In this document: positions 30,337 to 52,879 of the stretch, one piece after another
Position numbering within the stretch: the first letter of the stretch is position 1
Layout of the letters: each line of letters starts with the position of its first letter
NCBI GenBank assembly: GCA_036253055.1
Contig: GCA_036253055.1_4124.1
Length of the DNA: 64,000 nucleotides
Source: a phage
Reading direction: 5' to 3' (one strand)
Translations under genes and position numbers: made by a program
The notes under the pieces: generated by a model
Seen by the model: the letters and a program-made list of their open reading frames with translations, nothing else
What the model was told of the DNA's origin: nothing
The model's database searches: none

Positions 30337-30337
30337 G

Positions 30338-33551: not shown

Positions 33552-33579
33552 ATAATATATGAATTGTATAAAAAGTCAA
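33552..33579 (-). promoter_or_regulatory. Sigma70-like promoter (TTGACT-N16-TATTAT) heading the family-B array
   Basis: Hexamers on minus strand ~25 nt upstream of SD/ATG at 33521. Confidence 0.5.
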
Positions 33580-33599
33580 TAACATTTTATTCGTAATAC

Positions 33600-33770
33600 C
33601 CCTTTATCGAAGTCGCTAAGGTTACCCGCCCTTTAGCCCCCTACGCATTTTGCCATAGTCCAATCCCTTTTATTTTAAAAAAGTCAAGGGATTACCTATG
33701 CATTTTTTTAACGCATTATTTTAAAAACGCCTTGACTTTTTTCTGAATCAGTACTAGATCCCTTTACGCA
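33600..33770. promoter_or_regulatory. Intergenic control region with 13-bp inverted repeat and repeated ACGCATT motifs
   Basis: AAAAAAGTCAAGG ...(~40 nt)... CCTTGACTTTTTT; ACGCATT-like motif four times. Confidence 0.4.
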
Positions 33771-33980
33771 TTAATCCTTCGTTACGCTAACGATTATCTG
33801 TGTATCCCCGTAGTCCTGCCATACTTCCACGCCATCCGTCGCCCTGGTTAGTCGTGCTGTCATCTGCTTAACAGTCTTAGGCTTTAGTGGAACCTGTTGC
33901 AGTACTGTACGCATAGCATCACTGACGTTATCATGTACGCCAGCAATAGTACCTAGAACGCTGTATACTGTATAGAACAT
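33771..33980 (-). CDS. Hypothetical protein (69 aa)
   Basis: SD AGGAGGG before ATG; perfect hairpin AGGCCGCTctctAGCGGCCT upstream. Confidence 0.55.
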   Translation of the reverse strand: MFYTVYSVLGTIAGVHDNVSDAMRTVLQQVPLKPKTVKQMTARLTRATDGVEVWQDYGDTQIIVSVTKD

Positions 33981-34048
33981 ATGTATGCCCTCCTGATATA
34001 GTTAAGGCCGCTAGAGAGCGGCCTATGATGTTTGGTGATGTGTAATGC

Positions 34049-34450
34049 TTACAGCCCTAAGATAGTGCGTGCTTCGTTACGTTCCGTCCATAGCTGCATG
34101 ATGTGAGCAAGTAAGTCCTTACTAATGTATCCGGTGTTCATAGCTTCACGGATAGATACATCATAAGCACCGAACCCCGTGCGAACGATACGCACATCAT
34201 TTAGGTTAGTGTTATAGATACCGCCAAGATCAACGGCTTCGAATACTGCATCAACTGAATACTCATTGTTACCATCGTTGAAGTTTTCTAGTGCAATAGT
34301 ATTGGATACCGCCCAACGTTTGCAGTTTCCAATGATGCGGCATTGTTCCGGTTGGAGAGTGCCATTACTTACAGCGTACTCCAGTGCATCTTTACCAAAA
34401 GTCCGAGCCAGTACTAAAACGTCAGCGAAGGAAGTGATTGAGAAGGTCAT
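34049..34450 (-). CDS. Hypothetical protein (133 aa)
   Basis: Start set at ATG 34450 (SD AAGGAG); track start 34483 lies in the cassette hairpin loop. Confidence 0.6.
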   Translation of the reverse strand: MTFSITSFADVLVLARTFGKDALEYAVSNGTLQPEQCRIIGNCKRWAVSNTIALENFNDGNNEYSVDAVFEAVDLGGIYNTNLNDVRIVRTGFGAYDVSIREAMNTGYISKDLLAHIMQLWTERNEARTILGL

Positions 34451-34468
34451 GATAAAACTCCTTAATTT

Positions 34469-34532
34469 AGGAGGGAGAACCATTTCCCCCTCTCTATGTA
34501 AAACATTATACTTGATTCTAAGTACAATGCAA
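34469..34532 (-). promoter_or_regulatory. Class-1 cassette: TTGCAT-N16-TATAAT + GTTTTACAT + hairpin
   Basis: Read on minus strand; hairpin abuts SD of gene 34049-34450. Confidence 0.6.
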
Positions 34533-34539
34533 GTACTTT

Positions 34540-34866
34540 TTACATTTTAATTCCTGGATTCAGGTAACGATGTGATCCGTATTCTGGATCGGTTTCGGTC
34601 CAGTACTGTAAATCGATAGTACCTTTAGCGTTAATCTTGTCTACCAGCTTATTCATCTTACTGTAGACTACTTCGCTAGGGATGTAGTGTAATCCTTTAT
34701 TATAGAAGTAGTGGTTAGCTTCACTATCGTTTAAGATATAGCGTGCACCGTTTGCGGTTTGTGCAACAATGAAAGAGTATTCTACTTCCCGATCATTACC
34801 ATCAACAGTAATGCGGTCGAAATTGGTACGGATGAAAGCTTTAACGATAGCGATTGAAGTACTCAT
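34540..34866 (-). CDS. Hypothetical protein (108 aa)
   Basis: SD AGGAG; cassette upstream. Confidence 0.6.
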   Translation of the reverse strand: MSTSIAIVKAFIRTNFDRITVDGNDREVEYSFIVAQTANGARYILNDSEANHYFYNKGLHYIPSEVVYSKMNKLVDKINAKGTIDLQYWTETDPEYGSHRYLNPGIKM

Positions 34867-34886
34867 GGTGAATCTCCTAACTTTGT

Positions 34887-34948
34887 GGGCCGTCGCACCA
34901 TTGCCGCCCTACGAGATACATTATTGCAGTACTGATATACTTTGTCAA
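34887..34948 (-). promoter_or_regulatory. Class-1 cassette (TTGACA-N17-ATAATG + GC-rich hairpin)
   Basis: Minus-strand promoter hexamers with AGTACT in spacer. Confidence 0.5.
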
Positions 34949-34966
34949 TACTTTTTCTATTAAAAT

Positions 34967-35182
34967 TTATTTACAGAACTGTAGCCCGACTGTGTTCGGA
35001 TAGTACACACATCTTTCACGCTTACCGCTAAACGCAGATATCCAGGATAATTTGTATGCCACTGGTTCCGGTGCAAGAGGATTATTTGAATAATCGAGAA
35101 CTTTAACAATTAAACGGTCCCCAACATACCAGCCAGTTGACTCTTTGATACGGTCGATAATTTCTTGTTTGGTTAACGCCAT
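34967..35182 (-). CDS. Hypothetical protein (71 aa)
   Basis: Start moved to ATG 35182 (MALTKQEI); track start is a GTG inside the cassette. Confidence 0.55.
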   Translation of the reverse strand: MALTKQEIIDRIKESTGWYVGDRLIVKVLDYSNNPLAPEPVAYKLSWISAFSGKRERCVYYPNTVGLQFCK

Positions 35183-35204
35183 TTTATATCTCGCTCTTTT
35201 GGAG

Positions 35205-35265
35205 GTGGGCTGCACTATTGCCGCCCTACGAGATACATTATCTCAGTACTGATATACTTTGTCAA
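35205..35265 (-). promoter_or_regulatory. Class-1-like cassette (TTGACA, weak -10, GC-rich hairpin)
   Basis: Near-duplicate of cassette at 34887-34948. Confidence 0.45.
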
Positions 35266-35289
35266 TACTTTTTTTGAAATAGTTTTGAG

Positions 35290-35440
35290 TACTGGCATTA
35301 CATCCACCAGCAGATAGTTACTCACCGTTATTAACTATCTTATAGATACTTCTCTGCACCCTGTGGGCTAGTTTTTGTCTATGCGTATATAATAGCAAAG
35401 GGACTGACCGGAGTCAATCCCTTTTTTTTATTCTTTTTTG
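35290..35440 (-). repeat. Intergenic repeat copy A (conserved element + intrinsic terminator)
   Basis: ~150-nt unit shared with copies at 37.2, 40.1 and 44.1 kb; terminator GGGACTGACcggaGTCAATCCC + T-run. Confidence 0.6.
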
Positions 35441-35641
35441 TTAGATGATTCTCCAATCTTCTACCAGGATTTTAATATACCGTACCAGTGATTCGAGTGA
35501 TTCCACTTCCCGATAATCGGTAGCCGTTTGCACTGTACAAGTACAGCCGATCAAGCCATTGCCAAGCTCTTTGATCTGTACATCGATGCAGTTGGCTTTT
35601 GCTTCATTCAGTACTGCAACCAATTCGTTAGCGATTGACAT
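35441..35641 (-). CDS. Hypothetical protein (66 aa)
   Basis: SD AGGAG; cassette upstream. Confidence 0.6.
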   Translation of the reverse strand: MSIANELVAVLNEAKANCIDVQIKELGNGLIGCTCTVQTATDYREVESLESLVRYIKILVEDWRII

Positions 35642-35661
35642 AATGTTTTACTCCTAAAGGT

Positions 35662-35722
35662 GCGGGAGAACTATTCCCCCGCTCTATGTAAAACATTATA
35701 CATTATCTTGTAGTACTGTCAA
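35662..35722 (-). promoter_or_regulatory. Class-1 cassette (TTGACA-N16-TATAAT + GTTTTACAT + hairpin CGGGGGAAtagTTCTCCCG)
   Basis: Read on minus strand. Confidence 0.6.
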
Positions 35723-35729
35723 ATAGTTT

Positions 35730-35987
35730 TTATGAAATATCTTCGATATAGTCGGCCCATGTCATTTGTTCAGTACTATCTAGTGCACCAGGATTATTTG
35801 GATCAAACCATTCGCCATCCCCTAAGTACATTGCAGCCGCTACCGCTTTATAGCCATTATAGGCGTTATTCCACTGCATAGCACGATAGATACGGCCTTT
35901 GATTGGTGTCTGTACTGGTAATGTTTTATGGTCTTCTACGTAGGCCATAGCTTGAGGATTTACCCGATATTGTGTGAACTGTTCCAT
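35730..35987 (-). CDS. Hypothetical protein (85 aa)
   Basis: Start moved to ATG 35987 (MEQFTQ; SD AAGGGGAA); promoter TTGACA-N17-TGTAAT upstream. Confidence 0.5.
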   Translation of the reverse strand: MEQFTQYRVNPQAMAYVEDHKTLPVQTPIKGRIYRAMQWNNAYNGYKAVAAAMYLGDGEWFDPNNPGALDSTEQMTWADYIEDIS

Positions 35988-36062
35988 TATGTTTCCCCTT
36001 GTAGTTAGTAAAGTTATTACATCAGTACTATCACGCATTGTCAATAGTACTGAAATAAAACT

Positions 36063-36287
36063 TTAGATTAGATTATTGATGCCGTTGATGGTAGACTCGC
36101 TTTCTTCTTTCTCCCATTGGCGGTAATACTTCCATGCTTCATGATAGGTGGCGATCAGTTCATCTTTTTGATCCTGAGTACATGCCAGTACTGAATCACT
36201 GTAAGCGGTGTTATAGATAGAATCAAATGATTTCTTCTCTTCTGCCAGGGTAGCTACTTCCCGCATCAGTTCATCAAAGTTAGCCAT
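36063..36287 (-). CDS. Hypothetical protein (74 aa)
   Basis: SD AAGGAG; cassette upstream. Confidence 0.6.
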   Translation of the reverse strand: MANFDELMREVATLAEEKKSFDSIYNTAYSDSVLACTQDQKDELIATYHEAWKYYRQWEKEESESTINGINNLI

Positions 36288-36306
36288 TTTAGTACTCCTT
36301 ATTAGT

Positions 36307-36363
36307 GGGGGAGGATATCTCCCCCTATGTAAAACATTATACTTTGTTTTACTTACAATGCAA
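36307..36363 (-). promoter_or_regulatory. Class-1 cassette (TTGCAT-N16-TATAAT + hairpin GGGGGAGgatatCTCCCCC)
   Basis: Read on minus strand. Confidence 0.6.
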
Positions 36364-36370
36364 GTACTTT

Positions 36371-36562
36371 TTAAATTTTATTTCCGATATAGTCCGGCCT
36401 GTTCTTTTCGGTCATACGCTTAAGCATTTTTTGCATATGGCTTATTGCTTGTAGTGTATCCTCTTCCAGCGATGAATCAAGATAATCAGGATCATTCTTC
36501 ACCTTACAATGATTATGATAGCGTAGTACTGCCAGTACTTTTTTAACTTCTTCTACTGTCAT
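36371..36562 (-). CDS. Hypothetical protein (63 aa)
   Basis: ATGA overlap with upstream gene, co-transcribed. Confidence 0.5.
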   Translation of the reverse strand: MTVEEVKKVLAVLRYHNHCKVKNDPDYLDSSLEEDTLQAISHMQKMLKRMTEKNRPDYIGNKI

Positions 36563-36831
36563 AATAAGTATTCCACTTCGTTTGCTTTCAGGTTAGTATC
36601 AATCATCAGTGGTTTTTTGTAGTCCACAAAACGATTAGTTTTCTCGATAGCGAAGCCCATATAATCCAGTTTGCTTACAGTACATTCATTCTTAAAAACT
36701 TCTTTCGCTGCATTGATGGCTGATTCAATTGATAACCGCCCATCTAAATTAATGTTACCAAATGATCCACCAGCAGAAGTAGGATTACCGTTCATATCTT
36801 TAATAATCATAGTAGCGGAGTAGCTGGACAT
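36559..36831 (-). CDS. Hypothetical protein (90 aa)
   Basis: SD AAAGGAAA; cassette upstream. Confidence 0.6.
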   Translation of the reverse strand: MSSYSATMIIKDMNGNPTSAGGSFGNINLDGRLSIESAINAAKEVFKNECTVSKLDYMGFAIEKTNRFVDYKKPLMIDTNLKANEVEYLL

Positions 36832-36852
36832 AATTTTGTTTCCTTTTATTGG

Positions 36853-36912
36853 TGGGGAGAGCTATTCTCCCCTTGATGTAAACTATTATACAGTACTGAT
36901 ATACTTTGTCAA
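36853..36912 (-). promoter_or_regulatory. Class-1 cassette (TTGACA-N16-TATAAT + AGTTTACAT + hairpin GGGGAGAgctaTTCTCCCC)
   Basis: Read on minus strand. Confidence 0.6.
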
Positions 36913-36915
36913 TAC

Positions 36916-37137
36916 TTAATTACGTTTAAAATGATATGTACCGTTATCATCCTGTACGCCCCATACTGATTTACCATCAACACCAGTGAAGCCGGATTGT
37001 AATTCAATATGGAAACCGTTAGCATCAACGACGAAAACTTTTTTATTTTCATCCCGATAGCATTGATATTCTTCACCTGCTTTAAATGCTGCATCATTCA
37101 GAAGATTTGAAGCGTGAACGCAGGTCATAGTAGTCAT
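36916..37137 (-). CDS. Hypothetical protein (73 aa)
   Basis: Start moved to ATG 37137 (MTTMTC, SD AAAGGAA); track N-terminus MFYIERG... is translated cassette. Confidence 0.6.
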   Translation of the reverse strand: MTTMTCVHASNLLNDAAFKAGEEYQCYRDENKKVFVVDANGFHIELQSGFTGVDGKSVWGVQDDNGTYHFKRN

Positions 37138-37160
37138 CGTCTTGATTCCTTTTAGTACCA

Positions 37161-37220
37161 GGGAGAACCATTTCCCCCTCTCGATATAAAACATTATACG
37201 CTCATTGAGATAGTTTGCAA
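37161..37220 (-). promoter_or_regulatory. Class-1 cassette (TTGCAA-N16-TATAAT + hairpin)
   Basis: Read on minus strand. Confidence 0.6.
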
Positions 37221-37224
37221 GTAC

Positions 37225-37360
37225 TTTTTATAAAATAGTTTTCAGTACTGAATACTTATATAATAGATACACTTCCGCACCCTATGGGTCAGTGAGTTAT
37301 CTCTCAATGAATATATAATAGCAAAGGGACTGACTGGAGTCAATCCCTTTTTTAATCTTT
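37225..37360 (-). repeat. Intergenic repeat copy B (conserved element + intrinsic terminator)
   Basis: Element CCGCACCCTATGGGTCAGTG; terminator GGGACTGACtggaGTCAATCCC + T6. Confidence 0.6.
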
Positions 37361-37361
37361 T

Positions 37362-37946
37362 TTATCGTGTTATAGTTATCGCGTTAACATCACGTTTTTT
37401 ATAGTACTGATTCCAGATATTGCGGGTTAAACCGTAATCAAGTACTTTAATCAAGCCGTTGCGATCCTGGCCGATATTCTGTTTTCTGATATCTCTTATC
37501 GTTAGTGTGGATAATGTATCATCAACGTGATTGAGAGCATCAGCGAAATGGTGATGGCGTTCTACCGTATTACGTTTAATATTGTACTTTAACTCATTGC
37601 ACGCGTTTACATGCTTTACACTGCCTTTGCTTGCAGTACTCAAACGATCCATAACAATAAACAGATTATCAGGATCGCATAAATGCATATGCACTTTAGC
37701 AAAGTACTGTTTAAGGTGCGGACGGTCATAATCTAAAAAATTCCATACCTTACATTCAGTTTCATTTTGTTCTACACCCGCATCACAATTCGCGACCTTA
37801 ATCACTAACCGATCATTTAAAGCGAATACAATACGGGAAGAACCCGCACCGACGATCTCCAGTCCAGCTAACCGACAAGCTGAAAGGATCTCTTTGTTGG
37901 TTTCCATTGCATGAAGTGAACGGATGAATTTAGTATAGTTACGCAT
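37362..37946 (-). CDS. Putative protein-kinase-like protein (194 aa)
   Basis: Gly-rich loop VGAGSSRIVF, beta3 Lys in LVIKVA, catalytic-loop-like DIRKQN, DFG-like DYG; SD AAGGAG; start at ATG 37946. Confidence 0.5.
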   Translation of the reverse strand: MRNYTKFIRSLHAMETNKEILSACRLAGLEIVGAGSSRIVFALNDRLVIKVANCDAGVEQNETECKVWNFLDYDRPHLKQYFAKVHMHLCDPDNLFIVMDRLSTASKGSVKHVNACNELKYNIKRNTVERHHHFADALNHVDDTLSTLTIRDIRKQNIGQDRNGLIKVLDYGLTRNIWNQYYKKRDVNAITITR

Positions 37947-37977
37947 TGTGTTGACTCCTTGAGTTAATGAAACTATA

Positions 37978-45467: not shown

Positions 45468-45472
45468 ATTAA

Positions 45473-45745: not shown

Positions 45746-45796
45746 GGTATAATCCCCAATATAAGCGGCCTAAATCGACCGCTAACGATGTTTTGA

Positions 45797-46066: not shown

Positions 46067-46146
46067 TTTACTATCCTCTTAAGTTGATTTAATTTCTTTC
46101 TCCTATGCAGACACTATATCAAAGTATCTGCATAAAGTAAAGCTAA

Positions 46147-46470
46147 TTAAAGATCTTTTTTGCGTTTAACATTCTGTACAGTACAATGCAACGGGATATT
46201 AAGATCATTGCACAAACGATAGAGGGAGGTTTCAACAGTATCAAGCCCGTCTACTGATTCCTTTAAGAGTGATACCGCCGTTTGTTGATATGCATCCTCA
46301 TAGCCATAAGTAAATGATTCAACCGCCAGATCATTCAAGCCGTTATCCAGTTCAACGCTTACATGACAAGAATGATAAGTATTGCCATATGAATCAGTCC
46401 AACGTTTACCGTCAACATTGATTGCATGGATTGCAGCCAGGGAAACGGTGTTGATGATAGTTTTAGCCAT
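46147..46470 (-). CDS. Hypothetical protein (107 aa); paralog of 39086-39409
   Basis: SD AAGGAA; class-2 promoter upstream. Confidence 0.6.
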   Translation of the reverse strand: MAKTIINTVSLAAIHAINVDGKRWTDSYGNTYHSCHVSVELDNGLNDLAVESFTYGYEDAYQQTAVSLLKESVDGLDTVETSLYRLCNDLNIPLHCTVQNVKRKKDL

Positions 46471-46561
46471 TTTAGTATTCCTTAAATTAATATGTGTCGT
46501 CTTGATAAAATCTATTATGCCAGTACTATCAAACTATGTCAATAGTACTGTGATAATATTT

Positions 46562-46774
46562 TTACTTACTTTCTTTCGCTGCTTTATATGTTGCCACTGC
46601 CATAACCACATCAGCACGAACAAAGTTTTTAACCGTGTCACTGTAATAATTGATCGCATCATCTATATCTGCGAACGTCCGATACATACCGCACCAAGAT
46701 ACTTTATAACCTTCTTTCACTTCTACCAGTTTAACGATAGTCTTGTTAACTTTGATTTTAGTAATGATAGCCAT
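46562..46774 (-). CDS. MAII-family small protein (70 aa)
   Basis: Start moved to ATG 46774 (MAIITKIK, SD TGAGGAAAC); track start MVLP is the cassette hairpin. Confidence 0.55.
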   Translation of the reverse strand: MAIITKIKVNKTIVKLVEVKEGYKVSWCGMYRTFADIDDAINYYSDTVKNFVRADVVMAVATYKAAKESK

Positions 46775-46794
46775 TTTAGTTTCCTCATTATCAG

Positions 46795-46852
46795 GGAGAA
46801 CCATTTCTCCCCTTGATGTAATGTATTATACTTTATTCGATTTACTTTGCAA
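46795..46852 (-). promoter_or_regulatory. Class-1 cassette (TTGCAA-N16-TATAAT + hairpin)
   Basis: Read on minus strand. Confidence 0.6.
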
Positions 46853-46861
46853 GTACTTTTT

Positions 46862-47089
46862 TTAATTTAATTCATCCAGGCAAAGGATACGCTCAACGCC
46901 CAAATCAGTTAAACTAATCGACGGCACTTGATAGGTTTCAATGTATGCTACACTTGCCCACTGACCGAACTCATTAACGGCCCAGGTATTCATTGCATTT
47001 TGCAATTCCGCACCTGCCTTGTTAGTAATGACTGCAACTACTTGTTCGTTGCCAGTAGTACCAGATACGCGAGTAATGATAATAGCCAT
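46862..47089 (-). CDS. MAII-family small protein (75 aa)
   Basis: Start moved to ATG 47089 (MAIIITRV, SD AAAGGAA). Confidence 0.55.
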   Translation of the reverse strand: MAIIITRVSGTTGNEQVVAVITNKAGAELQNAMNTWAVNEFGQWASVAYIETYQVPSISLTDLGVERILCLDELN

Positions 47090-47112
47090 TGTTTTGATTC
47101 CTTTGATTTGGA

Positions 47113-47172
47113 AGGAGAACCGTTTCCCCCTCTCGATGTAAAACATTATACGCTAATCTCTTAATCGTGCAA
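47113..47172 (-). promoter_or_regulatory. Class-1 cassette (TTGCAC-N16-TATAAT + hairpin)
   Basis: Read on minus strand. Confidence 0.55.
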
Positions 47173-47216
47173 GTACTTTTTATTACTTTTTGCAAAATAC
47201 TTTAAACGCTCTCAAT

Positions 47217-47307
47217 CGCATTCTAACGACCTTAACGCCACCAGCTAGGGCGATGTATCAGATAATCAGTTTAATGCGTTAGAATCGATTCTAGGCGGTG
47301 CTGGTGG
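47217..47307. repeat. Interleaved inverted repeats (CGCATTCTAACG / CGTTAGAATCG and CCACCAGC / GCTGGTGG)
   Basis: Two inverted-repeat pairs arranged A-B...A'-B' between a terminator and the next promoter. Confidence 0.5.
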
Positions 47308-47324
47308 ACTGGAATACTACAGAC

Positions 47325-47352
47325 ACAAAAAAGCCCACTGTTTAAGGTGGGC
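47325..47352 (-). terminator. Intrinsic terminator (GCCCACcttaaacaGTGGGC + T6)
   Basis: Hairpin then TTTTTT on minus strand, 20 nt after stop at 47375. Confidence 0.7.
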
Positions 47353-47374
47353 TAGTGATTCAGTACTTTAATTG

Positions 47375-47857
47375 TTATGCTTCAACTTTGCGATGAGCTT
47401 CGATCCATTCCTCGCGAGTCATACCGCTTTCTTTGATAGCGTCCAGTACTACCGCAATGCAGTTACCGCGTACAGGAATCAAATGTTCTTCCCCGTTATC
47501 AAGGACAACAGTAACACGTTCTTGAATCCATTTTTTAGGCTTAGATTCCGGCTTATCTTCACCGTACTTAACCGCCAGGGCTTTATGTGCCATTTCAATA
47601 ACCACTTCCAGATCTAAACCAGACACCGCCGCCTGAATACTTTCTATTGTTGCTTGCAGTTCTGCTTCACGGGCTTTTTTCTGTTCTTCCAGTTCTGCTA
47701 CCTTTTTGGCTTGTAGTTCTTTCGCTTCACTGTAAGCAATGTTAAAATTGTTGCGTACTGCTTTCATGGTATCATTATCCAGGTCAGCCAGCAATTCAGC
47801 AGCAATCACAGTATCGTTAGAAATCAGTGCTTTCAGAAATGATTTTACATTAGCCAT
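47375..47857 (-). CDS. Hypothetical coiled-coil protein (160 aa)
   Basis: Start moved to ATG 47857 (MANVKSF, SD GAGGAT); Lys/Glu-rich heptad-like segment; strong terminator downstream. Confidence 0.6.
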   Translation of the reverse strand: MANVKSFLKALISNDTVIAAELLADLDNDTMKAVRNNFNIAYSEAKELQAKKVAELEEQKKAREAELQATIESIQAAVSGLDLEVVIEMAHKALAVKYGEDKPESKPKKWIQERVTVVLDNGEEHLIPVRGNCIAVVLDAIKESGMTREEWIEAHRKVEA

Positions 47858-48049
47858 TTTATAAATCCTCAATTAAAGTTTAAGTTAGTTTATCAAAGTT
47901 TGTTTGACGTGTCCAGTTTTTCATTCGACTTACTGGCGGTCTACTTAATGTTCCCCGTCTTGATGTAATACATTCTACGCTTTTCCCTGGTAATGTCAAC
48001 TACTTTTTTAAAACTATTTTCAAAGTATACCAGTACTACGATACTACAA

Positions 48050-48078
48050 AAACAAAAAAGCCCACTGTATAAGTGGGC
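48050..48078 (-). terminator. Intrinsic terminator (GCCCACttatacaGTGGGC + T6)
   Basis: Near-duplicate of terminator at 47325; follows stop at 48097. Confidence 0.7.
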
Positions 48079-48096
48079 TAGTGATTCAGTACTATA

Positions 48097-48396
48097 TTAT
48101 AAACAATTAATTACGCCAGTGAATGTAACTTTCTCTGTATCCATTACAGTAACCGAACCGCGTTTACTTTTTGCATCGTAATAGATGGTCGTGCTACCCT
48201 GATCATCTTCTTCATGGTACGGGCCATTAGCAAACATTGCAGGGGCCAGTTCCAGGGATTTGGTAACGATCTCAGCCGTTTCCTCGTTAGTCATTGCAAC
48301 AGTGCACTGAATGAATTTTTCTTTCTGTACATCAACGGAAGCGTTAACAGCGAAAGAGGAAACAGATAAAGCCAGGGCGATGATTGCAGTTTTCAT
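48097..48396 (-). CDS. Putative secreted/periplasmic small protein (99 aa)
   Basis: N-terminal signal-peptide-like MKTAIIALALSVSSFAVNA; SD AAAGGAT; own promoter and terminator. Confidence 0.6.
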   Translation of the reverse strand: MKTAIIALALSVSSFAVNASVDVQKEKFIQCTVAMTNEETAEIVTKSLELAPAMFANGPYHEEDDQGSTTIYYDAKSKRGSVTVMDTEKVTFTGVINCL

Positions 48397-48418
48397 TTGT
48401 ATATCCTTTGTTAGTACT

Positions 48419-48474
48419 AGGGAGTATTCCCGATTAGATGTAAAACATTATACGCGTTTAAAAACTATTATCAA
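48419..48474 (-). promoter_or_regulatory. Class-1 cassette (TTGATA-N16-TATAAT + GTTTTACAT)
   Basis: Read on minus strand; weak hairpin. Confidence 0.5.
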
Positions 48475-48507
48475 GTACTTTAATATAAAAGTATTTGAAA
48501 AAAAGTC

Positions 48508-48640
48508 TTGACAACTGCATCCAGTACTGGCATAATATCTACATAAAGACGAGATAGTCACTAACCCACAGGGTGCATAGATCCGTCTATTAAATGATTC
48601 AGTACTGCAAAATAAAGGGGATCGTTTGATCCCCCTGATT
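48508..48640 (+). ncRNA. Candidate plus-strand small RNA (class-2 promoter + CACTAACCCACAGGGTGCA element + terminator hairpin)
   Basis: TTGACA 48508-13, CATAAT 48531-36, element 48559-77, hairpin GGGGATCgtttGATCCCC 48617-34; no ORF; opposite to all local genes. Confidence 0.35.
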
Positions 48641-48641
48641 A

Positions 48642-48863
48642 TTACTTAGTAAGATATAAACAAAAATCACCTTTCTTTGATACTCCGCAAGTGTAACGCG
48701 ATGAATAGTTAGAAACGTCTTGTACTTCTGCAATGACGAGCGTATCATCATTTAACTCATCGCAAAAACATACTGCGGGATCTTCTACGCCGATATTGTC
48801 GGCATGTTCCCGCATAGATTTAACCAGTGCTTCAAGCTGGGAAAGAGTAGTGATATTAGCCAT
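48642..48863 (-). CDS. Hypothetical protein (73 aa)
   Basis: SD AAGGAG; cassette upstream. Confidence 0.6.
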   Translation of the reverse strand: MANITTLSQLEALVKSMREHADNIGVEDPAVCFCDELNDDTLVIAEVQDVSNYSSRYTCGVSKKGDFCLYLTK

Positions 48864-48882
48864 TGTAAAACTCCTTATTAGT

Positions 48883-48941
48883 GGGGAGAACCATTTCCCC
48901 CTTGATGTAAACTATTATATAGTACTGGAAACTATTTGCAA
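48883..48941 (-). promoter_or_regulatory. Class-1 cassette (TTGCAA-N16-TATAAT + hairpin)
   Basis: Read on minus strand. Confidence 0.6.
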
Positions 48942-48947
48942 GTACTT

Positions 48948-49136
48948 TTAATTAAATTCCATAAAATCATTTTCAACGTGCACAACAATCTGATTATTTT
49001 TAAAGGACGCAGAAAACTCTATACAATCATAAACCGCTTTTTCTGTTACCAGACTATGAGCACCAATCGGATTAATTGGGGATTGAATTGTTTCAATCTC
49101 GTTACCCTGCTCATTTACAATTAAAATATTAAACAT
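48948..49136 (-). CDS. Hypothetical protein (62 aa)
   Basis: SD AGGAG; promoter TTGCAA-N16-TATAAT. Confidence 0.55.
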   Translation of the reverse strand: MFNILIVNEQGNEIETIQSPINPIGAHSLVTEKAVYDCIEFSASFKNNQIVVHVENDFMEFN

Positions 49137-49210
49137 TGTCGTTACTCCTGGATAGTGTTAACTCGATGTAAACAATTATACAGTACTGGAAACTAATTGC
49201 AAGTACTTTT

Positions 49211-49414
49211 TTAATTTAATTGCTTTAAAACAAAATCAAAGACACCACGCACATCATTGATCATCGCCTGGCGGTTAGCAGGTAACGCATCAGGATCGCC
49301 ACTATCCCAGGCATTAATGAAGCCACTTAAATCATGGAATACTTTATTCCGTAACCCGATCAACTGCAATTCTTTTTCTTCAAGCTCTTTGATACGTTCA
49401 ATTAAATCACTCAT
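49211..49414 (-). CDS. Hypothetical protein (67 aa)
   Basis: Start moved to ATG 49414 (MSDLIERIK, SD GAGGAT). Confidence 0.5.
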   Translation of the reverse strand: MSDLIERIKELEEKELQLIGLRNKVFHDLSGFINAWDSGDPDALPANRQAMINDVRGVFDFVLKQLN

Positions 49415-49431
49415 TAGATAATCCTCAGTAC

Positions 49432-49716
49432 TCAATTGTAAGATCCACATCGTTCGCAGTAGTGTTCATCTTCCTCATCTTCTACCACTTGCCCGATGAA
49501 ATGATCTACTTTCGCTTTCAGGTTATTATAATCGTTTTCTACTTCCTGTAAACGTTCCTGGTAGTATTCCAGGGCTTCAACAAATGCAGCTTCCTCTGAT
49601 TTTGCTTGCATCGATAAATTCATCCCGCGTGTTTCATCATATAGCCAAAAACCATCGGTGCATTCAGTTATAGATAACGTGTTAGTCAGTACTTTACTAT
49701 TAATTACTTTGCTCAT
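49432..49716 (-). CDS. Hypothetical protein (94 aa), Cys-containing C-terminus
   Basis: SD GAGGAT; C-terminal HYCERCGSYN. Confidence 0.55.
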   Translation of the reverse strand: MSKVINSKVLTNTLSITECTDGFWLYDETRGMNLSMQAKSEEAAFVEALEYYQERLQEVENDYNNLKAKVDHFIGQVVEDEEDEHYCERCGSYN

Positions 49717-49735
49717 TAGATAATCCTCATTAAAG

Positions 49736-49794
49736 GCGGGAACTATTCCCGCTCTCGATATAAAGTATTATACGTTAATCTAATTACTTTGCAA
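49736..49794 (-). promoter_or_regulatory. Class-1 cassette (TTGCAA-N16-TATAAT + hairpin GCGGGAAtagTTCCCGC)
   Basis: Read on minus strand. Confidence 0.6.
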
Positions 49795-49801
49795 GTACTT
49801 T

Positions 49802-50039
49802 TTAGTGCTTTTTATAAAACATCTCAGCGGTGATATTTTTACCCGTTGGTTGTACTTTATCCAGGATCTTTTGGTGTGCACTACGCCCGAAAGAATAAGA
49901 ACCGTAAACCGTTAGCCAGTAGTCGCCATTTTGGTTTACATGTACCGCACAATAAGGAACGCCCCGCGAATCGTCACCAATGAAGTGTGATACTGTACCC
50001 GTTACGTTTGGCGTTGTAGTTTTGATTTGTTCGATCATT
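49802..50039 (-). CDS. Hypothetical protein (78 aa)
   Basis: Start moved to ATG 50039 (MIEQIK, SD AGGAG) downstream of hairpin GGCGGGGAAtggTTCCCGCC. Confidence 0.5.
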
Positions 50040-50096
50040 TCTCTTACTCCTGGGATATAGGCGGGAACCATTCCCCGCCATTGATTCAGTACTGAA

Positions 50097-50708
50097 TTAA
50101 TATTCGATAGATTCTACTACATCGTCGATAACGTTAAATTGATATTCGTTACCCTCAATCAGTCCTACAATGTTTTCAGTAGTAAACTGGTCTTCATAAG
50201 CATTTTCTAAATCACGGTACAGCTTACAAGATAATTCTCGGATAGTATCAGTCAGTAAGTTTTCCAGATCCTCAGCCAATGCAGCCTGTTTTACAGTTAA
50301 ATCAGTGTAGCGAGTATCAACGCAACCGCCTACCGTGTTTTCGTGAGCGTAGCGTGATTGGGAACGTTCTACACTCATTTCCAAATCATCTTCGTTCAAC
50401 AGGTGACGGATGGAACGATATTTCGTTAACGCCTTAACCTTGCGTAAAAACTTCTCAGCGTCAACGTGGTCAGTACTGATTGATGCACCGTCACCTTGCG
50501 ACCAAAAACCACTGTATTGCAATTCAGCTTCATCTATGCCGTATTCTGGCAGTACTGTTTCTTTATAGTATTCCAGTACTGATTCAGCAAAGAAATTATC
50601 CTCACTTGCACGTTCCCGATCCCGAACCAGTTCGATAGCCGCCGCTTGTTGTTCTGCGTTCAGTTCAGAAAAATCCATAACGAAAGTAGTAGTAGTGATA
50701 GTTTTCAT
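50097..50708 (-). CDS. Hypothetical acidic protein (203 aa)
   Basis: SD TGAGGGT; tandem promoters with structured element X copy 2 between them. Confidence 0.65.
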   Translation of the reverse strand: MKTITTTTFVMDFSELNAEQQAAAIELVRDRERASEDNFFAESVLEYYKETVLPEYGIDEAELQYSGFWSQGDGASISTDHVDAEKFLRKVKALTKYRSIRHLLNEDDLEMSVERSQSRYAHENTVGGCVDTRYTDLTVKQAALAEDLENLLTDTIRELSCKLYRDLENAYEDQFTTENIVGLIEGNEYQFNVIDDVVESIEY

Positions 50709-50778
50709 TTTGTAACCCTCATTCAGTAGTTGATGTAAGTATTATACGCTTTTAAAAACAATTGTCAAACTATTTTAT

Positions 50779-50886
50779 CAGGGGAGTTTTTCGTGTGCCT
50801 TACTCCTGGGCTACTTAACGGGAAGTTACTTATTTCGTTCCCCGTCCTGATGTAAAACATTATACGCCTTTAAACATAGTTTGCAA
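50779..50886 (-). ncRNA. Candidate structured leader/sRNA element X (copy 2)
   Basis: About 90% identical to 39968-40074; frame-disrupting differences argue against a peptide. Confidence 0.35.
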
Positions 50887-50931
50887 GTACTTTTTGAAAA
50901 TAGTTTTTATCTCTTTCATATAGATACATTC

Positions 50932-51001
50932 CCGCACCCTATGGGCTATCGCCTTGTGTCCGGCTTGTAAGTATTATCTCACTAAGCCGGATAACGGTCA
51001 A
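50932..51001 (-). promoter_or_regulatory. Class-2-like promoter (TTGACC..TAATAC) + conserved CCCATAGGGTGCGGG element + hairpin CCGGCTT-N17-AAGCCGG
   Basis: Same promoter-to-element arrangement as 42498-42567. Confidence 0.4.
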
Positions 51002-51007
51002 GTACTT

Positions 51008-51274
51008 TTATTCAAGTACTGCAATCTTTTTAGTACTGTACACAGTAACGCGGTTGCCCTTGCGGTCGTGCTTTATTTCTACCACGCGACGCGATACACT
51101 ATCAGGACGCTTTAAAGCAGATAGCCAGTACTGAATTGATCGGGCTGTACTTTGCTTTACTACGGCCCAACGTTTACCACGTTCAGATTGTACGCCCATA
51201 TCTTTAAACGTTGCCCCGTCCTGGCGTGCTGCAATCCGAGCTAGTTCACGCGTCGCAAAATATGTAATAGTCAT
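51008..51274 (-). CDS. Hypothetical protein (88 aa); paralog of 38591-38986
   Basis: Start moved to ATG 51274 (MTITYFATREL, SD AGGGGT). Confidence 0.55.
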   Translation of the reverse strand: MTITYFATRELARIAARQDGATFKDMGVQSERGKRWAVVKQSTARSIQYWLSALKRPDSVSRRVVEIKHDRKGNRVTVYSTKKIAVLE

Positions 51275-51357
51275 GCTGTTACCCCTATCGTTGATGTACA
51301 AAAAGAACTTTATTATAAAGTACTATCACCGTGCAATAGTACTTTTAATCTATTCTC

Positions 51358-51597
51358 TTACATTCCAACCATCGCCGCACGGATCGCAGTAGTACTATAC
51401 TTAAAGCCGTCCGGTGTTTTATCTTGTCCAGTCTGTTCTAAAAATAGCATCATATGACGGGCCGCATCATTACGATTAGTGTTAGCGGCAATAAAGTCCT
51501 GGGCCAACCGGTATAATGATTCGTCGTTATTAATCCAAAGGCTTACATTCCATTGAGTTTTGTTTTTGTGTCCTAAGAACATTTTTGATTTAGCCAT
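51358..51597 (-). CDS. Hypothetical protein (79 aa)
   Basis: Start moved to ATG 51597 (MAKSKMF, SD AAGAGGAT). Confidence 0.55.
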   Translation of the reverse strand: MAKSKMFLGHKNKTQWNVSLWINNDESLYRLAQDFIAANTNRNDAARHMMLFLEQTGQDKTPDGFKYSTTAIRAAMVGM

Positions 51598-51618
51598 TTT
51601 TAAATCCTCTTTATTATA

Positions 51619-51677
51619 GTGGGGAACTATTCCCCACCTGATGTAAAACATTATACGCTTTTAAACTTAGTTTGCAA
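51619..51677 (-). promoter_or_regulatory. Class-1 cassette (TTGCAA-N16-TATAAT + hairpin GTGGGGAAtagTTCCCCAC)
   Basis: Read on minus strand. Confidence 0.65.
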
Positions 51678-51691
51678 GTACTTTATTAAAC

Positions 51692-52054
51692 TTATTCGTA
51701 AATCTTGCCACTGTCAGCCCATACCAGGAAACGAGGCATATTATCCCATGCATCTTGTTTTAAGTTTAAGCCGTGTAATACTTCTGTACTTTCCATTCCT
51801 GGTACTGGCTTGCTATACACTGCAAACATTTCGCCCATGTACTGATAAGCCATCGTTAAATCAGTCTGGATCATCTTATGGATCATTGCATCCAGCATTG
51901 CAGTAGCGGCATACTGTTCACGCTTAAGCGGCAGCATTGCAATCAATTCCCGATAAGCTGCAATGTGAATCCGTACAGTCTCAGCGGGAAGATCTTTCAT
52001 CTCTTCACGGAAAGAAACCAGGTTAAGCATGATAGTATTGATTTGAGTCGCCAT
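51692..52054 (-). CDS. Hypothetical protein (120 aa)
   Basis: Start moved to ATG 52054 (MATQINT); first gene of the middle module. Confidence 0.55.
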   Translation of the reverse strand: MATQINTIMLNLVSFREEMKDLPAETVRIHIAAYRELIAMLPLKREQYAATAMLDAMIHKMIQTDLTMAYQYMGEMFAVYSKPVPGMESTEVLHGLNLKQDAWDNMPRFLVWADSGKIYE

Positions 52055-52077
52055 CGTTTTAATCTCTTTTAAAGTGT

Positions 52078-52137
52078 AGCGGGAAGTGTTCCCGCTCTCG
52101 ATGTAAAACATTCTACACCTTTCCCAATACTTTGCAA
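52078..52137 (-). promoter_or_regulatory. Class-1 cassette (TTGCAA-N16-TAGAAT + hairpin AGCGGGAAcacTTCCCGCT)
   Basis: Read on minus strand; most upstream cassette of the module. Confidence 0.6.
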
Positions 52138-52879
52138 GTACTTTCTACAAATACTTTTAAAATAGTTTTCTTTCTATATAGGGGAACTATCTTTCAGTAC
52201 TGCAACCATCCAGGGGAACTATCTTTCTATATAGTAGTACTATGATTCAGTACTGAATCAATCCACCAAATCATCCCGATACCCCGTAAAACGGCCTCAG
52301 ACGCATTCTAACGCATTAATACACCTAAGCTATACATTTGCACCATTCCAATCATTCCAGGGCTTTACAGGCCGTTTAAACGCGTTAAATTATTTTCAAT
52401 TATTTTGTTTTTAGCTATTGACTCAGTACTAAAAAAGCGTATAATTACTACATAGACGCGAGAAAGCGGATACCCCAGGGGGTGGGAAGATCCGTCCAAA
52501 ATTCAAGATATAAAAAAAGGATACACTCCCGCACCCTAGCAGGTTAACGCACTTTCTCAGTACTGAATTATAGTACCATAGTCCGGCCCAGGATGGCAAG
52601 CAAATTAATTAAAACTTTTTTCATCCAGGGTATTGCTTTATTTTTCCAGTACTGTATAATAGTTCCATCAAGTCGAGAAAGACTCAAGCCCACCGGGTGC
52701 ATAGTTACGCCCAAAATTCAGTACTGAAAAAATTTTTAAAAATATCCGTCCAGGCCGTTGACATTGCCCCCAGTTTATAAGATAATGATTCCAGATTCAG
52801 AAAAATCTAACTCCAGATACTGCGGGGAAACTATCCCCACGCGGTAGGGGAACTATTGGAAAAAACAAAATAAAATTTT

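Follow-up and report, generated by a model that had tools for sequence, protein, structure and literature searches.

A repeated promoter and stem-loop cassette in the terminal-repeat module of an Asteriusvirus-type jumbo phage

The window, a 64,000-nt stretch of phage DNA, contains 22 simple copies of a compact cassette in which a strong sigma70-type promoter is followed by a G-rich stem-loop, a Shine-Dalgarno sequence (SD) and an ATG. In the explanation that we favour, with somewhat better than even confidence, the cassettes belong to early units of a direct terminal repeat (DTR), in which a transcribed 5'UTR stem-loop would promote expression post-transcriptionally and the cassette would also provide portable homology.

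The terminal-repeat module

By nucleotide comparison, the window is from an Asteriusvirus-type jumbo phage of E. coli, related to 121Q and G17; Asteriusvirus genomes match it at 92-95% nucleotide identity. The DTR is annotated in vB_Ec-M-J, Muenster and fENko-Kae01, and restriction digests confirmed it in fEgEco12 (PMC13070987). Position 1 of the vB_Ec-M-J DTR corresponds to window position 53,789 and its end (21,525) to ~33,619, and the G17 record begins where the DTR does.

33619-53789, minus strand: module equivalent to the ~20-21 kb DTR of Asteriusvirus phages, mapped from relatives

The module contains ~50 small genes, all co-oriented, and a promoter census gives ~48 strong near-consensus sigma70-type promoters. 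Judged by analogy, it is probably an immediate-early or host-takeover region. Early or host-takeover modules lie in the terminal redundancy of SPO1 and the first-step-transfer region of T5. These share with the window a long direct terminal repeat and many small co-oriented genes, (nearly) each with a very strong host-RNAP promoter, but belong to other phage lineages and hosts, and we know of no report of a conserved 5'UTR hairpin cassette or AGTACT-type motif in their repeats.

Architecture of the cassette

Each unit runs from an A-rich upstream tract through a near-consensus sigma70 promoter, a conserved TTTACAT start region, the stem-loop and a linker to the SD and ATG. The individual copies are as follows.

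52052-52137, minus strand: cassette 1, AAAGTAC-TTGCAA-N16-TAGAAT, GTTTTACAT; hairpin AGCGGGAA-cac-TTCCCGCT (52096-52078), SD, ATG at 52054
51595-51677, minus strand: cassette 2, hairpin GGTGGGGAA-tag-TTCCCCACT (51638-51618), ATG at 51597
50036-50079, minus strand: promoter-less hairpin and ribosome-binding-site copy, GGCGGGGAA-tgg-TTCCCGCC, placed 17 nt beyond the upstream stop and 24 nt short of its ATG
49714-49794, minus strand: cassette 3, hairpin GAGAGCGGGAA-tag-TTCCCGCCTT (49756-49733)
48861-48941, minus strand: cassette 4, AGTACT at both promoter positions; GGGGGAA-atgg-TTCTCCC with internal G·U (48901-48884)
48394-48474, minus strand: cassette 5, degenerate; weak hairpin CGGGA-atac-TCCCT
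47087-47173, minus strand: cassette 6, hairpin GAGGGGGAA-acgg-TTCTCCTTC (47132-47111)
46772-46852, minus strand: cassette 7, hairpin GGGGAGAA-atgg-TTCTCCCT (46812-46793)
45186-45267, minus strand: cassette 8, hairpin GGGGAGAA-atga-TTCTCCCC (45227-45208)
44957-45038, minus strand: cassette 9, hairpin AAGGGGAA-aacg-TTCCCCTT (45000-44981)
44619-44699, minus strand: cassette 10, hairpin GGGGAGAA-atgg-TTCTCCCC (44659-44640)
44026-44107, minus strand: cassette 11, hairpin AGGGGAAA-cgg-TTTCCCCT (44066-44048)
43591-43672, minus strand: cassette 12, type copy of the earlier note, GGGGAGAA-tag-TTCTCCCC (43632-43614)
41483-41562, minus strand: cassette 13, GGGGAGAA-tag-TTCTCCCC (41521-41503); AGTACT at both promoter positions
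40860-40939, minus strand: cassette 14, GGGGAGAA-atga-TTCTCCCC (40899-40880); top covariance-model match
39407-39493, minus strand: cassette 15, AGTGAGGGGAA-tgg-TTCCCCTCCT (39454-39431)
38549-38567, minus strand: true intrinsic terminator of the same stem family, GGCGGGAA-tag-TTCCCGCC followed by TTTTTT
37135-37220, minus strand: cassette 16, AGGGGGAA-atgg-TTCTCCCT (37179-37160)
36829-36912, minus strand: cassette 17, GGGGAGA-atagc-TCTCCCC (36872-36854)
36285-36364, minus strand: cassette 18, GGGGGAG-atatc-CTCCCCC (36325-36307)
35639-35722, minus strand: cassette 19, GCGGGGGAA-tag-TTCTCCCGC (35682-35662)
35180-35265, minus strand: cassette 20, diverged; extended -10 (TGaGATAAT); hairpin GGGCGGCA-atag-TGCAGCCC
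34864-34948, minus strand: cassette 21, diverged; GGGCGGCA...GGCCC
34448-34533, minus strand: cassette 22, TAGAGAGGGGGAA-atgg-TTCTCCCTCCTA (34496-34468); stem nearly at the predicted transcription start

A covariance model trained on 11 copies finds 21 in the window at E<0.003, every one on the minus strand, from 34,467 to 52,115. With the diverged copies at 35,265 and 34,948 the census comes to 22 simple cassettes plus 3 long-loop variants, so the earlier note was right to count about 22 copies. This is far above chance: GGGGAGAA-N3-TTCTCCCC with up to 2 mismatches has 4 matches (0.00 expected), and TTGACA-N9-AGTACT-N-TATAAT with up to 3 has 15 (0.28 expected). The same note went too far in giving the cassette to most small genes and the hairpin to every transcript of the module; the stem-loop lies behind 22 of the ~48 promoters (~45%), and the hairpin-less promoters, about half, have leaders of 22-30 nt. 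The false N-termini that it suspected in the ORF track are real; MFYIERG arises at the ATG of TATA-ATG and MVLP at the hairpin loop AAUGG.

The geometry is quite constant. Stems are G-rich and 7-10 bp long, with loops of 3 to 6 nt. The hairpin starts 10-13 nt 3' of the -10 hexamer and ends 16-24 nt 5' of the ATG. Taking the A of CAT as the predicted transcription start leaves ~5 (3-7) unpaired 5' nucleotides before the stem, and the 10-13 nt distance after TATAAT predicts a hairpin span of ~+4..+7 to +25, not the +10 to +30 given before. Nor does the palindrome abut the SD as described; an A-rich linker of 5-12 nt separates the two.

The hexamer AGTACT occurs in 18 of 20 hairpin cassettes, which bears out an AGTACT-containing promoter, although not with one fixed site: it overlaps the upstream edge of the -35 in 12, lies at -19..-14 in 9 and takes both positions in 3. 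AGTACT is over-represented 8-21 times across Rak2-like phage loci, and the hexamers of the module promoters are lineage-specific. They look like protein sites and are a better operator candidate than the palindrome.

RNA structure or DNA operator

The stem-loop appears to act as a sense-strand RNA structure and not as a protein operator, because of its covariation, its G·T pairs without A·C pairs and the same geometry with unrelated stems. The exact GGGGAGAA-N3-TTCTCCCC occurs only twice; the other copies form ~15 different stems. In an alignment of 56 distinct rows (A4), pairing is found in 95.6% of cells, double changes in 6 of 8 pairs and compensatory changes in 48 cells; these counts are not independent events, because the rows were fitted to the model and come from paralogous copies. 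None of 500 shuffles reaches the observed values, and the signal is lost once the 3' partner is slid. The covariation analysis that the earlier note proposed thus finds compensatory changes, and its remark that the stems vary yet stay self-complementary is borne out. The 46 distinct stems contain G·T pairs 26 times and A·C pairs never (the scoring weights both equally), and the purine arm comes first in all 46. The G·T/A·C asymmetry is likewise compatible with a sense-strand single-stranded DNA hairpin. Loops are unconserved among copies.

The comparison with other phages points the same way. In Klebsiella phage K64-1 a hairpin occupies the corresponding position although its stems are unrelated (for example AGGAGATTCCA, GGGAATGAAT and AGGAGGT), and the phi92-like VEcB has the same geometry, its stem being of the GCGGGAA type and akin to that at window position 49,794. 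In both, the distances from hairpin to promoter and to ATG are those of the window. A DNA operator for a dimeric regulator, the other half of the choice offered by the earlier note, would suit a dyad just 3' of the promoter in ~22 repeats, and the RNA half is the one that the results support. For the G-rich palindrome the operator is effectively refuted by the ~15 different half-sites with compensatory changes in one genome, the tolerance of G·T but never A·C, the 3 to 6 nt range of loop length, the unrelated K64-1 stems at the same position and AGTACT as a far better candidate.

Proposed role in the 5'UTR

In the favoured explanation, the DTR module would be built of autonomous one-gene expression units. 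The stem-loop would be transcribed as ~+5 to +25 of its own transcript and would also be internal to read-through transcripts. It would cap mRNA 5' ends against decay and, after processing, form a 3' barrier for the upstream cistron. The stem would also keep its CU-rich 3' arm off the SD, which would leave the ribosome site ~20 nt downstream unpaired. The analysis shows the repeat with its geometry, covariation, strand asymmetry, lack of a T-run, association with breakpoints and presence in several phage families; where transcription starts, whether it is early and how the stem-loop affects mRNA stability or translation are inferred. In the predicted 5'UTRs, the hairpin is both the minimum-energy and the centroid structure, with SD and AUG unpaired. 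When the 5' arm is removed in folding, the 3' arm pairs with the SD (mean 4.5 of 10 SD nucleotides, versus 0.9 in the full UTR).

This pairing is also what a translational gate would use, with the CU-rich 3' arm as anti-SD and the G-rich 5' arm as anti-anti-SD; loss or cleavage of the 5' arm (RegB-like or by RNase E) would free the 3' arm to sequester the SD and so turn the early genes off jointly. Without the 5' arm, pairing of 3' arm and SD forms in most of 37 cassettes, up to -11 kcal/mol. The uniform purine-first order and the GGAG in many 5' arms also fit a gate, and T4 RegB cleaves GGAG in early mRNAs. However, the alternative helix, at a mean of -3.5 kcal/mol, is weak and arises automatically wherever a pyrimidine arm adjoins any SD, and many stems are not SD-like (GCGGGAA and GGGAATGAAT, for example). 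We regard the gate as quite improbable.

For the favoured post-transcriptional role, the 5' stem-loop of T7 gene 10 is a precedent. Like the stabiliser hairpins ompA hp1, papA and the T7 gene 10 leader (GGGAGACC...GGTTTCCC), the window element is a G/C-rich stem-loop near the 5' end of a transcript (in those cases a highly expressed one), with an unstructured leader and a strong SD after it, and it shares with T7 phi10 the purine-rich arm first. It differs in its 5 (3-7) predicted unpaired 5' nucleotides, against 0-4 in the characterised cases, and in being part of a mobile cassette of ~22 copies. Precedents for 5' stem-loop stabilisers are Emory 1992 and Bouvet & Belasco 1992, both listed in PMC3997798. 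RNase E, whose scanning is little impeded by a simple orthogonal stem-loop, is efficient at cleaving pAUCA-stem substrates (PMC11194081). Because of this behaviour and the marginal length of ~5 unpaired nucleotides, classical 5'-end protection by the cassette hairpin is doubtful. The hairpin would be dispensable for expression as such, since about half of the module promoters work with a hairpin-less leader. The constant spacing may come from common descent of duplicated cassettes, not selection. In the literature searched, we found no transcript mapping or expression measurement for these phages.

Relation to PeSLs and to terminators

Promoter-early stem-loops (PeSLs) are described in the T4-type phages RB49/phi1, PST/T4 and nt-1/KVP40 (Arbiol et al. 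2010, PMC2839356; Comeau et al. 2014, PMC4122927). Judged by its layout, the window cassette is a variant of the PeSL cassettes of T4-like phages. Both pack a near-perfect sigma70 promoter with an A/T-rich tract before it, a stem-loop of the form G(n)-loop-C(n), and the SD and ATG into about 100 bp; both cluster in regions of small ORFans and bound indels between close relatives. Canonical composite forms also occur in the window, with a stem that overlaps the -35 and carries a T-run (AAAGGGATTGACTCCGGTCAGTCCCTTT). We call the cassette a variant because in RB49 the PeSL stem mostly falls within the promoter, between -35 and -10 (GGGGATC...GATCCCC), so that the transcript of the unit does not include it. 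In the window, by contrast, the stem has a fixed 5'UTR site, no T-run and RNA-type covariation. The genome is also that of a Rak2-like jumbo phage whose terminal repeat is filled by the elements, and its promoters carry AGTACT.

The original reading of PeSLs is that of a terminator or attenuator, in which the stem-loop stops or damps incoming upstream transcription and insulates gene units. A PeSL stem-loop of RB49 lowered lacZ expression as much as rrnB T1 (PMC2839356). The composite hairpins with T-runs, the ARNOLD terminator calls in G17 at comparable spacing and the terminator at 38,567-38,549, a stem of the same family with T6, agree with such a role. None of the 22 hairpins is followed by a T-run, however, and the terminator scan flags other hairpins and passes over all of these, as expected from the earlier description of a palindrome without a U-tract. 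As the hairpin is 3' of the start predicted for its own unit, it would end that unit's transcript just as readily, and the constant ~20 nt to the ATG has no use in termination. Termination is thus an improbable function for the simple cassettes.

Cassettes and recombination

Of 14 indel junctions against G17, 12 are bounded by cassettes, as are 4 of 5 between SE_PL and fENko-Kae01, and many junctions show overlapping alignment ends. The gene of cassette 9 (44708-44959), for example, is absent from G17 and is bounded by cassettes 9 and 10. Units of cassette plus gene recur in Vequintavirinae phage A73 at 78-91% identity in changed order (86% for cassette 6 and its gene), some are in common with VEcB at 72-79% nucleotide identity, and rV5-like and phi92-like phages contain such units in a shuffled order. 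The A73 orthologue of the promoter-less copy at 50036-50079 has a promoter. Single genes would be gained, lost and swapped between cassettes, within the lineage and with unrelated coliphage families, in a PeSL-type modular shuffling. The cassette would serve as portable homology because ~80 bp are repeated dozens of times in direct orientation. That the module is the DTR, that the cassette is of the PeSL kind and that cassettes mark recombination breakpoints are points on which the earlier note was silent.

The inverted repeat could also act purely as DNA, as part of a recombination hot spot or a hitch-hiker without RNA function, as a single-stranded hairpin in replication or recombination, or as a target at which a recombinase moves gene cassettes. 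The coincidence of cassettes with indel junctions, their presence in different phage families, the PeSL mini-circles of RB49/phi1 with crossovers in or near the stem-loop (PMC2839356) and the G·T over A·C bias, which fits a one-strand hairpin, all suit this reading. But a repeat of ~80 bp suffices for homologous recombination with no need of a hairpin, and hairpin-less cassettes bound junctions too. The strict place between start site and SD, the ~20 nt to the ATG that are kept across families despite different stems, and the promoter-less copy of hairpin and ribosome-binding site all speak for the transcript. We consider a role in DNA alone to be unlikely.

The units also resemble morons (Hendrix et al. 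2000), single genes with their own promoter inserted between resident genes, but their regulatory flanks are conserved repeats that themselves supply the recombination homology.

Terminal repeat and cassette organization

The cassettes lie in the terminal repeat of a jumbo phage. A 5-kb piece of the region is 92–95% identical to the Asteriusvirus jumbo coliphages 121Q, G17 and BAU.Micro_ELP-22, and a direct terminal repeat (DTR) is annotated over the homologous stretch in vB_Ec-M-J (1–21,525), Klebsiella phage Muenster (1–20,030) and fENko-Kae01 (1–19,736). In fEgEco12 the DTR of 20,993 bp was verified with restriction digestion (PMC13070987). The ends of the vB_Ec-M-J DTR, located by BLAST, map the repeat to window 33,619–53,789 with its genes on the minus strand, so the module placed by the earlier note at 33,552–52,150 is essentially the DTR. 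The G17 record starts at the same point as the mapped repeat end (53,789). By homology this point corresponds to the left physical end of the genome; the GC skew reverses at ~54 kb. There is essentially no coding sequence in the initial ~1.6 kb of the DTR (52,200–53,789), which has promoters on both strands and many hairpins and may contain packaging or terminus signals. The region shows the DTR location, co-oriented small genes and host-type promoters of a terminal-repeat early module, early timing being assigned by analogy. Pfam matches among the ten largest module products are limited to a DksA/TraR zinc finger, a GNAT acetyltransferase and a kinase-like protein that stays below threshold. 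A 213-aa DTR protein (37,362–38,003, minus strand) shows weak sub-threshold protein-kinase matches (E about 0.002), and the DTRs of relatives carry an annotated 'putative protein kinase'. The kinase-like protein is reminiscent of the early kinase gp0.7 of T7. No tRNAs were found.

The minus strand of the module carries about 48 strong sigma70-type promoters in 20 kb, 12 of them perfect (12/12). The repeated cassette reported in the earlier note is confirmed, with corrections to its details. Both of its patterns exceed chance, the exact palindrome with 4 matches (0.00 in shuffles) and the AGTACT promoter with 15 (0.28 in shuffles). A covariance model made from 11 copies detects 21 window copies with E<0.003, none of them outside 34,467–52,115; after two diverged copies are added to these matches there are 22 simple cassettes, in agreement with the earlier count of about 22. 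Three long-loop variants and one promoter-less copy occur besides. All copies are inside the DTR module, whose genes encode roughly 40–210 aa. In Rfam no match reaches the gathering thresholds, and what appears at E<1 is sub-threshold noise; an IMG/VR scan for TATAAT-N3-TTACAT-N3-GGGG returns only 121Q itself and single chance matches.

An A/T-rich tract, AAAA(A)GTAC or AAAATAGT, stands upstream of the -35 element. Of 20 cassettes, 18 contain AGTACT, which lies over the upstream edge of the -35 (AAAGTAC-TTGCAA) or at -19 to -14 (AGTACTG-TATAAT). The hairpin starts 10–13 nt (mode 12) past TATAAT, within the unit's own 5'UTR, and ends 16–24 nt (median 20) before the ATG. Stems are 7–10 bp long with ΔG of -7 to -15 kcal/mol, and the G-rich arm comes first in 46 of 46 distinct stems. 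The ATG of TATA-ATG and the AAUGG loop are the sources of the false N-termini noticed earlier in the ORF track. Annotation is affected accordingly, as the cassettes are also missing from published promoter and terminator lists. The promoter-less copy is the following; the A73 orthologue of its gene does have a promoter.

50,079–50,036, minus strand: promoter-less hairpin-SD-ATG unit, 17 nt past the upstream stop codon

The stem-loop as a probable RNA structure

The earlier note had offered two readings of the palindrome, an RNA structure and a shared operator; the first is supported and the second is not. Across 65 copies, 56 of them distinct and taken from the window, G17, SE_PL, fENko-Kae01, K64-1 and A73, 95.6% of cells are standard pairs and 6 of 8 pairs are changed on both sides (48 cells), in a covariance-model alignment that is fitted to the model and made of paralogues. 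The observed covariation values are reached in 0 of 500 shuffles, and the signal is lost when the 3' partner is slid. A plain MAFFT alignment of 20 copies leaves the arms out of register, and RNAalifold then gives 3 pairs only. Some rows of the covariance-model alignment are mis-registered as well, and the 'AC' cells in it are artefacts of this.

The arms of 46 distinct hairpins were aligned by per-hairpin dynamic programming with G·T and A·C scored alike. They contain 26 G·T or T·G pairs, 13 of which are internal with Watson-Crick pairs on both flanks, and 0 A·C pairs. A looser ungapped scan, too noisy for A·C counts, shows two decayed A·C-bearing copies in relatives. Transitions yield G·T and A·C equally, and a duplex or cruciform is harmed by either, so that the asymmetry speaks for a structure formed by the single sense strand, most simply RNA.

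A hairpin in this position recurs in other phages. In K64-1 (a Klebsiella phage, Alcyoneusvirus) the stems found there are unrelated (AGGAGATTCCA, GGGGATACA, GGGAATGAAT, AGGAGGT, GGGGCAA) and the loops differ, and in the phi92-like phage VEcB GGCGGGAAA-tgg-TTTCCCGCC and similar stems are found at equal distances. In the predicted 5'UTRs the hairpin is both the minimum-energy and the centroid structure, with SD and AUG unpaired. Structure rather than sequence is conserved, as in hairpins that stabilize mRNA. About 15 stem sequences and loops of 3–6 nt occur in one genome, with compensatory changes. Stems and loops this variable exclude a sequence-specific operator with a conserved half-site and fixed spacing; they also rule out a boxB/nut-like protein-binding hairpin, whose loop would be conserved. 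Overall we regard an operator role of the palindrome as highly improbable. The stems are too short for an RNase III site.

Proposed function of the 5'UTR hairpin

Transcription typically starts 7±1 nt past the -10 element, with a pyrimidine at -1 and a purine at +1. The A of the conserved CAT, 8 nt past the -10, is therefore the predicted start, which places the hairpin at about +6 to +25. Stabilizing hairpins leave about 0–4 unpaired 5' nucleotides, and the value predicted here is 3–7 (mode 5). Stabilization of E. coli mRNAs by a 5' stem-loop has reportedly been described by Emory (1992), Bouvet and Belasco (1992) and Arnold (1998), as listed in PMC3997798. Among phages, the leader of T7 gene 10 offers a precedent with identical arm polarity. 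With a pAUCA overhang ahead of a stem, RNase E still cuts efficiently, and its scanning is little hindered by a simple orthogonal stem-loop (PMC11194081). Protection of the mRNA 5' end by the hairpin is thus plausible, not secure.

The ribosome-binding site is the other candidate beneficiary. The spacing of ~20 nt between hairpin and ATG is kept across phage families. If the 5' arm is omitted, the CU-rich 3' arm turns to the SD instead, and 4.5 of 10 SD nucleotides are paired rather than 0.9. Together with the promoter-less copy, this suggests that the hairpin may also, or instead, serve the ribosome-binding site. A translational gate, in which the hairpin would control access to the start site, could draw on the same pairing of 3' arm and SD; we consider it quite improbable. 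In read-through transcripts, the hairpin could form a 3' barrier for the upstream cistron. We lean towards a cis-acting 5'UTR RNA element that would raise expression through mRNA end protection and insulation of the ribosome-binding site. This 5'UTR RNA reading would also affect how the cassettes might be reused as compact strong expression parts.

Comparison with promoter-early stem-loops

The closest known system is the promoter-early stem-loop (PeSL) of T4-like phages, in which a near-perfect sigma70 promoter with an A/T-rich tract is combined with a stem-loop of the form G(n)-loop-C(n) (PMC2839356; PMC4122927). PeSLs are clustered among ORFans, lie at the limits of indels and give rise to mini-circles through recombination of neighbouring elements, with the stem read as a terminator or attenuator (PMC2839356; PMC4122927); a minority subclass with the stem 'downstream of -10' is mentioned (PMC2839356). 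The window cassettes resemble them in the near-consensus sigma70 early promoters with an A/T-rich tract above the -35, in the stable poly-G-then-poly-C stem-loop, and in the hyperplastic region of small ORFans with its indel association. However, the 22 window hairpins lie below the -10 rather than upstream of, within or overlapping a promoter, where they would act on incoming transcripts. In the PeSL-rich region of RB49 (ORFs 185–211), the stem GGGGATC...GATCCCC is in the -35/-10 spacer, and thus outside the unit's own transcript; a downstream stem is seen in one copy only.

The stem also differs in its ending. As the earlier note remarked, no U-tract follows the palindrome: a T-run is found after 0 of 22 hairpins, whose tails are ACTAA, ACAAA or GGTAA, and the same scan flags genuine terminators of the module. 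All 22 copies thus lack the signature of an intrinsic (Rho-independent) terminator. An attenuator, as read for PeSL stems, is rather unlikely. The relocated-stem cassette is without terminator features and with RNA-type covariation. It is a PeSL-like cassette with the stem moved to a fixed 5'UTR site in the DTR of a Rak2-like jumbo phage, and the stem-loop of this subclass would be a 5'UTR RNA element, neither terminator nor operator. The range of PeSL-type mobile promoter cassettes thus widens beyond T4-like phages and takes in the terminal repeats of Rak2-like jumbo phages. Papers on the latter (CBB, fEgEco12, fENko-Kae01) describe RpoD-like promoters with UP-like elements and DTRs; the hairpin cassette and AGTACT motif were not found in them.

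The canonical composite PeSL form is also present, in four copies on the minus strand (40,212–40,185; 37,350–37,323; 35,424–35,397; 44,236–44,209). It is a 28-nt hairpin, AAAGGGATTGACTCCGGTCAGTCCCTTT, with A-runs and T-runs at its flanks, which holds the -35 of the next promoter and looks like a bidirectional terminator. Unlike the 22 cassette hairpins, these 28-nt hairpins do have the promoter-overlapping placement of PeSLs. In G17, ARNOLD terminators are annotated across the homologous module with a comparable spacing. In the SE_PL/fENko-Kae01 group, many cassettes have a GGGG...CCCC stem across the -10 hexamer and not in the 5'UTR (in SE_PL, our locus L002, stems overlap the -10 at 15851, 18408, 22147 and 27301), and a hairpin-less leader (ACTTACATCAATTAAGCAAAGAGAGAAACAAAATG) is found at most promoters.

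Recombination and exchange of cassette-gene units

Between the window and G17 (92% identity), 12 of 14 indel or replacement junctions are cassette-bounded on both sides, including those of the window genes at 48,948–49,136 and 44,708–44,959 and of the GNAT gene at 41,565–41,921. Likewise, 4 of 5 junctions between SE_PL and fENko-Kae01 are cassette-bounded. As a cassette is present in nearly every intergenic gap, such an association is expected for any viable indel. More specific evidence comes from the alignment ends, which overlap by 12–99 bp at 8 of the 14 G17 junctions, a signature of direct-repeat deletion or insertion. That the hairpin is a DNA-only recombination element we consider unlikely.

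A73 (Vequintavirinae) shares cassette-plus-gene units with the window at 78–91% nucleotide identity, in a different order:

47,151–46,772: unit matching A73
51,597–51,358: unit matching A73
50,067–49,811: unit matching A73
43,612–43,318: unit matching A73

Some units are also common to VEcB (Stephanstirmvirinae), at 72–79%. The same promoter-hairpin-gene units are thus carried by rV5-like and phi92-like coliphages, which suggests that plug-and-play early genes move, as a shared pool, among unrelated virulent phages of one host.

AGTACT enrichment

The enrichment of AGTACT is the most surprising by-product of this analysis. It is the top hexamer outlier of the window, with 256 copies in 64 kb against 46.9 expected (order-2 Markov, z = 30). 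Genes contain 156 of these copies, compared with 47.7±5.4 after synonymous-codon shuffling, which is three times above expectation, and all three frames are involved. The hexamer is found by preference in the context CAGTACTG. Conservation between the window and G17 reaches 88.5% (108 of 122 aligned sites), compared with 68% for all hexamers. In all Rak2-like loci examined, DTR and non-DTR (the whole window and loci L001, L002, L003, L004, L026 and L027, covering Asteriusvirus, Alcyoneusvirus, the SE_PL group and Eneladusvirus), AGTACT is 8–21 times the mononucleotide expectation. It is not enriched in A73 (6 in 12 kb), VEcB (0 in 20 kb) or RB49 (0 in 20 kb). The DksA/TraR-like protein, used as module locator, reached a paralogue outside the DTR in A4 and fHe-Yen9-03, and these loci are usable only as AGTACT controls and as covariance-model controls, which are near-negative with one weak match, in L003. 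In the window, AGTACT 'deserts' at 18,000–24,000 and 30,000–32,000 have 0–2 copies per 2 kb and may be recently acquired DNA.

At promoters, palindromes containing AGTACT (such as CAGTACTA-TTGACA-N8-TAGTACTG and ATTATGCCAGTACTGGCATAAT) bracket the -35 and adjoin the -10. AGTACT is a better candidate than the hairpin palindrome for the shared operator suggested earlier. A more tentative reading takes the cassette as a two-layer, lineage-specific unit: a putative AGTACT-recognizing phage protein, DNA-binding or DNA-modifying, would mark the entire genome and turn the ~50 promoters of the terminal repeat off or on together, and the 5'UTR hairpin would be an anti-anti-SD whose loss would silence translation. 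We hold this to be possible but doubtful. If AGTACT is a protein recognition site, it would offer a handle on the organization or timing of transcription in these poorly understood 350-kb phages.

Other repeated elements

A second repeated element has the conserved core CCCA(C/T)AGGGTGC...GTATCTAT. Its motif starts are:

50945, minus strand: second element
44174, minus strand: second element
42510, minus strand: second element
40155, minus strand: second element
37288, minus strand: second element
35367, minus strand: second element
48565, plus strand: second element
52689, plus strand: second element

A promoter of its own (often TTGACT-N17-TATTAT) lies ~30 nt upstream, and downstream of the element comes the next promoter, with no ORF between. 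It is common to SE_PL, fENko-Kae01 and K64-1. Covariation is absent, and there is no match in Rfam or in E. coli genomes; the element could correspond to a short non-coding RNA or mark a protein site.

In a tandem-promoter arrangement, the first promoter leads into a structured leader of ~85 nt, ACAUCAGG-ACGGGGAA...CUCCCCGU-...-CCCCUGAU, which runs as far as a second promoter, immediately upstream of the gene:

50886–50770, minus strand: tandem-promoter arrangement
40075–39960, minus strand: tandem-promoter arrangement
47999–47880, minus strand: variant of the arrangement

This element is 86–90% identical in A73. One intrinsic terminator carries a stem of the 5'UTR family:

38,567–38,549, minus strand: intrinsic terminator, GGCGGGAA-tag-TTCCCGCC followed by TTTTTT

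The shared stem suggests that terminator and 5'UTR hairpins may interconvert.
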